Of a stretch of 64,000 nucleotides of DNA, positions 59,340 to 59,800 are shown piece after piece. The DNA is from Trypanosoma brucei (taxonomy: Eukaryota), in the NCBI GenBank assembly GCA_000002445.1, contig CP000068.1, forward strand, positions 1,344,001-1,408,000, written 5' to 3'. Within the stretch, counting starts at the first letter, position 1. Each line of letters begins with the position of its first letter. The notes under the pieces are model-generated. The model saw only the letters and a program-made list of their open reading frames with translations. It made no database searches and was not told the origin of the DNA. Made by a program: the position numbers and the translations under genes.

Positions 59340-59800
59340 TGGTCTTTAGAAATCTTATTATTATGTTAGTATATACACACTCTCACAACACACTTCTATC
59401 ATTATCATCATCATCATCATCATTATTATTACTGCTCTTATTTGATATTCGTTTATACACAGTCACAACGCCCTTTCTTTCTCACTATTACTGGATTTCT
59501 ATTATTTTATTATTATTATTTTATTATTATTATTATTATTATTATTATTATTATTATTATTATTATTATTATTATTATTATTATTATTATTATTATTATT
59601 ATTATTATTATTATTATTATTATTATTATTATTATTATTATTATTATTATTATTATTATTATTATTATTATTATTATTATTATTATTATTATTATTATTA
59701 TTATTATTATTATTATTATTATTATTATTATTATTATTAATGTTCTTCTTATAATATTTGTACATACACATTCACAACATTATCATTATCATTATGATCA
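59340..59800 (-). repeat. 70-bp repeat tract upstream of VSG-5 containing a large (ATT)n expansion
   Basis: 70-bp cores lie at 59350-59420 and 59440-59480, and a degenerate one at 59745-59800. Between them is an uninterrupted (att)~73 run at 59506-59740. Confidence 0.85.

Follow-up and report, generated by a model that had tools for sequence, protein, structure and literature searches.

A tract of 73 perfect TAA triplets in the window (the whole 64-kb stretch of DNA that was analysed) is best explained as the (TAA)n module of a 70-bp repeat unit that has been expanded by slippage and lies upstream of a silent, chromosome-internal VSG pseudogene. We give this reading a probability of roughly 0.8. 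The evidence comes from the position of the tract between conserved repeat cores, its alignment with other repeat units in the window, and the gene content on either side.

Location and gene content of the window

The window is part of chromosome 5 of Trypanosoma brucei brucei TREU927 and spans the transition from the core to a subtelomeric VSG array. In the left half, Pfam matches place adenylate cyclase, amidohydrolase, and ESAG1/ESAG genes on the plus strand, while the minus strand from ~42 kb to 62 kb carries VSG genes and fragments with VSG_B, Trypan_glycop, and Trypan_glycop_C domains. Of eight ORFs of the window compared by exact sequence, six matched proteins with a TREU927 accession, among them XP_845125 (GRESAG4), XP_845131 (ESAG1), and XP_845134 (“VSG, atypical”). 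No telomere (TTAGGG) repeats were found in the 64-kb window, and this, together with the Pfam gene layout, identifies the locus as a silent, chromosome-internal VSG array.

Length and purity of the tract

The tract consists of a perfect run and a short imperfect edge.

59521-59739, minus strand: perfect (TTA)73 on the plus strand, equal to (TAA)73 in the VSG sense and (ATT)72 (exact count)
59500-59520, minus strand: imperfect tract edge of the same triplet with two 1-nt deletions, the sense reading being ...AAAATAATAATAATAAAATAATA (sequence reading)

By exact count, the perfect run is 219 bp long with zero interruptions and 0% G+C; in the ATT phase, it is (ATT)72 at 59523-59738. TRF reported a period of 3 at 59500-59739, with 80.7 copies, 98% matches, and 1% indels, and the whole tract, with its imperfect edge, therefore comprises 240 bp and ~80 units with two 1-nt indels over the same interval. 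The edge (21 bp) reads ATTATT-TT-ATTATTATTATT-TT on the plus strand, two triplets each being one base short. A 30-nt (ATT)10 probe gave 63 overlapping matches, all of them within the tract, and none in 100 dinucleotide-preserving shuffles, which excludes chance as the origin of the tract. The second-longest perfect ATT-class run in the 64 kb has 6 units.

A previous sequence-only reading had placed a run of ~73 units at 59506-59740. The existence of the tract is borne out by direct reading of the sequence, by TRF, and by the exact count, and the placement and unit number were essentially right. Its description as uninterrupted over ~235 bp holds for 219 bp, whereas the longer figure of 240 bp takes in the two 1-nt indels.

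Anatomy of the repeat unit and cluster

The conserved GT-rich core of the 70-bp repeat (sense, GTGTTGTGAGTGTGTGTA) was matched 21 times in the window at ≤3 mismatches, against an expectation of 0.04, and 22 times at ≤4 mismatches, every match being in the minus-strand sense. The cores that bracket the tract cluster lie at 59763-59780 (4 mismatches), 59454-59471 (3 mismatches), and 59374-59391 (1 mismatch), and the cluster is composed as follows, in the order of the VSG strand.

59781-59811, minus strand: triplet-rich remnant GATAATGATAATGATAATG of a further upstream unit (BLAST)
59472-59780, minus strand: expanded 70-bp repeat unit, 309 bp (core match and alignment)
59392-59471, minus strand: second 70-bp repeat unit, 80 bp, with core GCGTTGTGACTGTGTATA and a normal triplet block, TAATAATAATGATGATGATGATGATGATAATGATA (core match and alignment)
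59341-59391, minus strand: third, partial 70-bp unit with core GTGTTGTGAGAGTGTGTA (1 mismatch), the last before the VSG-proximal spacer

As judged from core matches and alignment, the tract is held by a short three-unit 70-bp repeat cluster, at the canonical TAA/GAT triplet slot of one unit. On the minus strand, the expanded unit runs from the core ATGTTGTGAATGTGTATG (59763-59780) through AT-rich TACAAATATTATAAGAAGAACATT, (AAT)72, and the decayed edge to a degenerate tail; it thus has the order of an AT-rich segment (TATACGAATATTATAATAAGAGCAG) and then a TAA/GAT triplet run after the core. In the alignment, it reads TACAAATATTATAAGAAGAACAT and then the TAA run in the same columns as the canonical units, and the tract occupies the position at which canonical 74-bp units (54936-55083) carry TAATAATAATGATGATGATAATA. 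The proposal that the tract lies inside a 70-bp repeat is therefore upheld, both by the GT-rich cores that flank it at 59763-59780 and 59454-59471 and by its alignment at the canonical triplet position.

When 57600-60100 was compared with the window by BLAST, homology was confined to the repeat cluster (59353-59811) and the 3′UTR 16-mer region. On the upstream side, homology to the other 70-bp arrays ends with the remnant at 59781-59811, and the same search gave no sign within the window of the tract being a duplication boundary. The triplet tract accounts for 219 to 240 bp of the excess length of this 309-bp unit, and collapsing it leaves a degenerate tail with ~30 bp extra. Given these ~30 extra bases and the 4 mismatches in its core, the degenerate expanded unit may have lost its recombination-homology function, perhaps altogether.

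Comparison with other repeat units and with published tracts

The rarity of the tract was gauged against the 21 other 70-bp units in the 64-kb window. Core-to-core spacing is 74 to 146 bp for those units and 309 bp here, and their whole triplet-like blocks measure 9 to 81 bp. Their perfect triplet runs number 1 to 6, compared with 73 here, so the tract greatly exceeds the runs in all remaining units, as had been suggested, and has ~10 times the length of its neighbours. In the adjacent array, (TACTAT)7-12 expansions occupy the triplet slot of five units, and the next-largest expansion in the window is a (TACTAT)12 hexamer run (74 bp) in this array at 54826-56261. Hexamer expansions at the triplet slot suggest that this slot is the length-variable module of the unit. 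A report on the T. brucei repeats, with reference to Aline et al. (1985), describes the AT-rich stretch between conserved units as varying in length (Hovel-Miner et al. 2016; PMC4858185).

The neighbouring array, which has 19 cores over ~1.45 kb and lies upstream of the gene for XP_845134 (“VSG, atypical”; 52074-53534, minus strand), is unusually long for a chromosome-internal VSG and shows higher-order periods of 190 and 395 bp. For array VSGs, reviews quote 1 to 3 repeat units.

The sequence-only reading gave the normal length of the triplet run as 5 to 15 units, which leaves out documented very long pure tracts. One title announces (TAA)90 flanked by tandem 76-bp repeats (Campbell, van Bree & Boothroyd 1984, NAR 12:2759) and another (TAA)n flanking intrachromosomal VSG genes (Aline et al. 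1985, NAR 13:3161). Our literature search found neither published ranges of n for (TAA)n nor slippage studies in T. brucei. Since the kind was described in 1984-85 and the reference genome has been public for two decades, very long pure (TAA)n tracts in 70-bp repeats are already known, and this instance is extreme but ordinary.

The cluster resembles the T. brucei 70-bp (76-bp) repeats (Liu et al. 1983; PMC4858185) in the succession of core, AT-rich segment, and triplet run, in lying on the VSG strand ~1.7 kb upstream, and in forming a short cluster of 1 to 3 units. It differs from them in a unit length of 309 bp rather than ~75 bp, in its 73-unit triplet run, and in the degenerate core and tail of the expanded unit.

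A close published relative, to judge from its title, is the (TAA)90 run, which is comparable in number (73 versus 90 units), pure, and situated between 70-bp units upstream of a VSG, and whose title refers to a VSG “upstream barren region” and to the 5′ limit of transposition (Campbell et al. 1984). Here, too, the run is flanked on both sides, (TAA)73 lying between the cores at 59763-59780 and 59454-59471. The (TAA)90 run is said to come from an expression-site context with long repeat arrays. In contrast, the present tract is part of a cluster of three units that precedes a pseudogene within a silent internal array, and the telomeric expression-site “barren” setting is not found: there are only three units, the window has no TTAGGG repeats, and array pseudogenes lie on either side. 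The tract is also like the chromosome-internal VSGs that, to go by the title of the report, have variable (TAA)n in their flanks (Aline et al. 1985).

Duplex stability and predicted structure

By nearest-neighbour calculation, the free energy of the tract is −0.82 kcal/mol per step, compared with a window mean of −1.34 (standard deviation [SD], 0.10). Whether 100, 200, or 240 bp are taken at a time, no other segment of the 64 kb is less stable, and the value lies ~5 SD from the mean. By calculation, the duplex is thus exceptionally unstable along the whole TTA.TAA run, which agrees with the unwinding element of Ohshima et al. (1996, JBC 271:16784), who are cited for the finding that TTA.TAA can turn “non-H-bonded” in supercoiled plasmids. 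The repeat sequence is identical to that in the tract, but their result was obtained with supercoiled plasmids, whereas the resemblance here is at the level of sequence, computed stability, and lack of a predicted hairpin, in a silent trypanosome locus.

No hairpin or cruciform was predicted on either strand, single-stranded DNA folding leaving the tract unpaired. For 361 nt, the minimum free energies (MFE) came to −3.1 and −3.9 kcal/mol, and 99 to 100% of shuffles folded more stably (z, +1.8 and +2.8). Without a predicted hairpin, any non-B behaviour would be unwinding rather than hairpin or cruciform formation. The earlier suggestion that the tract is prone to non-B structures therefore stands with respect to easy unwinding, for which the lowest nearest-neighbour stability in the window argues, and fails with respect to hairpins, none of which is predicted.

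Assignment to the hairpin-forming class of expandable triplets was considered and rejected because neither strand gives a stable fold. The tract shares with disease-type triplets (CAG/CTG, CGG/CCG, and GAA/TTC) a pure trinucleotide run whose length far exceeds the thresholds usual for slippage and would on this account be expected to be length polymorphic. Unlike them, it has neither a stable hairpin nor the homopurine/homopyrimidine asymmetry for a triplex, and it is intergenic, with no known transcription.

Flanking VSG sequences

The following features lie downstream and upstream of the cluster on the VSG strand.

56406-57686, minus strand: VSG with a B-type N-terminal domain, 426 amino acids (Pfam E = 2.5e-40)
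57687-59340, minus strand: spacer of 1.65 kb from the repeats to the VSG start, termed the co-transposed region in the sequence-only reading (BLAST)
59976-61886 (including the 16-mer), minus strand: frameshifted VSG pseudogene, the upstream neighbour of the repeats (Pfam and 16-mer match)

The claim that the tract lies upstream of a VSG proved correct, the next VSG on the minus strand being that at 56406-57686. This VSG is ~100% identical over 426 amino acids to “VSG 1125.1290” of EATRO1125; the homologue search with it returned two protein records, that with a conserved VSG C-terminal fragment had no matches, and exact look-ups of four window proteins gave no encoding contigs. Its reading frame is broken by a TGA immediately ahead of a degenerate GPI signal (TNTT*SNFIRINKESLLLANF), and the canonical 3′UTR 16-mer is missing downstream. 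On the basis of the premature TGA, the degenerate GPI signal, and the missing 16-mer, we read it as a pseudogene. Presence of the same archive member in TREU927 and EATRO1125 points to an orthologous locus at which tract length could be compared.

The tract sits ~1.8 kb upstream of this pseudogene, on the VSG strand, and 1.65 kb separates the last 70-bp unit from the start of the VSG_B ORF. For minichromosomal VSGs, 70-bp repeats are reported ~1.5 kb upstream (PMC4858185). BLAST found no homology to the spacer (57687-59340) elsewhere in the window.

In the upstream pseudogene (60028-61886, minus strand), a VSG_B N-terminal fragment (61470-61886) and a C-terminal domain (60028-60408) are recognizable. 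Its conserved 3′UTR 16-mer is at 59976-59991, and the repeat cluster starts ~165 to 185 bp beyond.

The canonical VSG 3′UTR 16-mer (sense, TGATATATTTTAACAC) occurs once in the window, at 59976-59991, with one additional 2-mismatch copy at 46029-46044. A single canonical copy for roughly six minus-strand VSG genes or fragments fits an array composed mostly of pseudogenes.

A 5′ fragment of an ingi/RIME-type retroposon (61155 to ~61470, plus strand) lies inside the frameshifted pseudogene. The fragment starts with CCCTGGCGGTTCCGGCCACC, and its ORF begins with MLLSGDVEENPGP, a 2A-like motif; 2A-like sequences have been reported for T. brucei ingi (PMC3708506).

Origin of the tract

We suggest that the triplet run of the 70-bp unit was expanded to 73 perfect units, most likely via replication slippage. 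Perfect purity combined with decay at one edge only would point to recent, ongoing turnover by slippage, of which this pattern is the usual mark in long microsatellites. If neutrality is assumed, the triplet run built into the unit has probably given rise to the tract as a near-neutral by-product. The cluster as a whole could serve as homologous sequence, upstream of the VSG, from which gene conversion carries the VSG sequence into an expression site, and published accounts describe 70-bp repeats as guiding homologous pairing with archive VSGs (PMC6237402; PMC4858185). A structural effect of the tract, if there is one, would presumably be strand separation under negative supercoiling, in the non-H-bonded TTA.TAA state. 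A largely untranscribed array would offer little opportunity for supercoil-driven strand separation.

Alternative explanations

The sequence-only reading had put the tract forward as a candidate break or recombination hotspot. On such an account, the expanded tract would be an active fragile site at which unwinding or fork stalling causes breaks and hence VSG cassette recombination or array rearrangement. We consider this unlikely. It is true that the duplex stability of the tract is the lowest in the window by ~5 SD, that a non-H-bonded state has been reported for the TTA.TAA component of 70-bp repeats (Ohshima et al. 1996), and that this component has long been proposed as a cause of instability. 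One source describes the (TAA)n tract of each 70-bp repeat as being considered physically unstable and gives its causing breaks as theory (PMC3467770), and another reports natural breaks near VSGs irrespective of transcription and suggests replication as their source (PMC3610638).

Several lines of evidence nevertheless speak against an active fragile site here. First, folding predicts a hairpin or cruciform for neither strand, and at the MFE the tract stays unpaired (z, +1.8 and +2.8). Second, the locus is silent and chromosome internal, the downstream gene is a pseudogene, and breaks at silent sites, in the experiments reported, neither activated the silent VSG nor led to switching (PMC3610638). 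Third, in a BLISS study, the 70-bp repeats of BES1, which map poorly, yielded no clear reads (PMC10691351), and evidence for a break-initiating role of the repeats has been called “strikingly contradictory” (PMC5422504). Fourth, the tract is perfectly pure and intact, and repeated break and repair would be expected to leave it otherwise. A hotspot role in antigenic switching at this locus is unlikely, as the neighbouring gene is a pseudogene of a silent array with a degenerate 3′ end; a role of the tract in array rearrangement may be envisaged. The fragility idea is a decades-old hypothesis, and both the silent pseudogene setting and the missing hairpin potential lower its likelihood at this locus.

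A more general form of the fragility idea, that hyper-expanded pure TAA tracts in silent arrays act as length-dependent, chromosome-internal fragile or unwinding sites, is a long shot. If it were true, breaks would be seeded in the archive itself and would lead to array rearrangement and pseudogene shuffling rather than to expression-site switching, and the natural spread of tract lengths (mostly 1 to 6 triplets, with 73 here) would constitute an allelic series for the “TAA instability” hypothesis. The locus is a convenient natural test site, with unique flanks, a long tract, and a VSG common to EATRO1125, and a usable question is how TAA-tract length relates to breakage, R-loop formation, and recombination in the silent VSG archive. 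As it stands, the importance of the tract is small, since it is an extreme but expected example in a well-studied repeat.

That the length of the tract is an artefact of cloning, sequencing, or assembly, the real tract being much shorter or different, seems very improbable. Low-complexity tracts are generally error prone, and in finished trypanosome expression-site clones the gaps are reported to have been all in 70-bp repeat regions (PMC2567434). The source here is, however, the TREU927 reference chromosome 5, and near-identical proteins have BAC-style names (Tb05.5K5.210 and Tb05.5K5.220), from which the chromosome was assigned. This reference is presumably a clone-based Sanger assembly. With 240 bp and unique flanks on both sides, the tract is shorter than a Sanger read of ~700 bp (ABI 3730) and could be spanned by one. 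In an E. coli experiment, an (AAT)24 insert was deleted to 8 units, and the account given is of contraction with no expansion (PMC3000339); cloning bias would thus shorten the tract, which makes an inflated length improbable. Comparable tracts were, moreover, sequenced independently in the 1980s, as the (TAA)90 title attests (Campbell et al. 1984).

The possibility that the tract is part of a gene product, as a poly-Asn, poly-Tyr, or poly-Ile coding region or as a structured RNA, is effectively refuted: ORFs do pass through it (59327-59740, plus strand, poly-Tyr; 59442-59819, plus strand, poly-Ile; 59502-59771, minus strand, poly-Asn), but they are a mechanical consequence of the repeat, open in three frames at once because ATT, TTA, TAT, AAT, and ATA are all sense codons and ending at the tract edges, the surrounding sequence aligns as 70-bp repeat rather than coding sequence, and a structured RNA is rejected by the lack of an Rfam match in 54000-64000 and of predicted structure on either strand.

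Other features of the window

At the core/subtelomere boundary, the plus-strand ESAG/GRESAG4 genes give way to the minus-strand VSG array at a convergent strand-switch (~37100 to 39100). The last plus-strand gene before it is ESAG1 (36095-37069), and the first minus-strand ORF past it (39173-40027) is without a Pfam match. Among the ESAG-like genes, outside the minus-strand array, a 377-amino-acid ORF (30081-31214, plus strand) contains a VSG_B domain (E = 1.7e-30); its exact sequence had no match in the protein collection searched, and it could represent a gene or fragment related to VSGs. A dinucleotide microsatellite, (AT)15 (24166-24195), lies just upstream of an ESAG3-like gene (24247-25434, plus strand).
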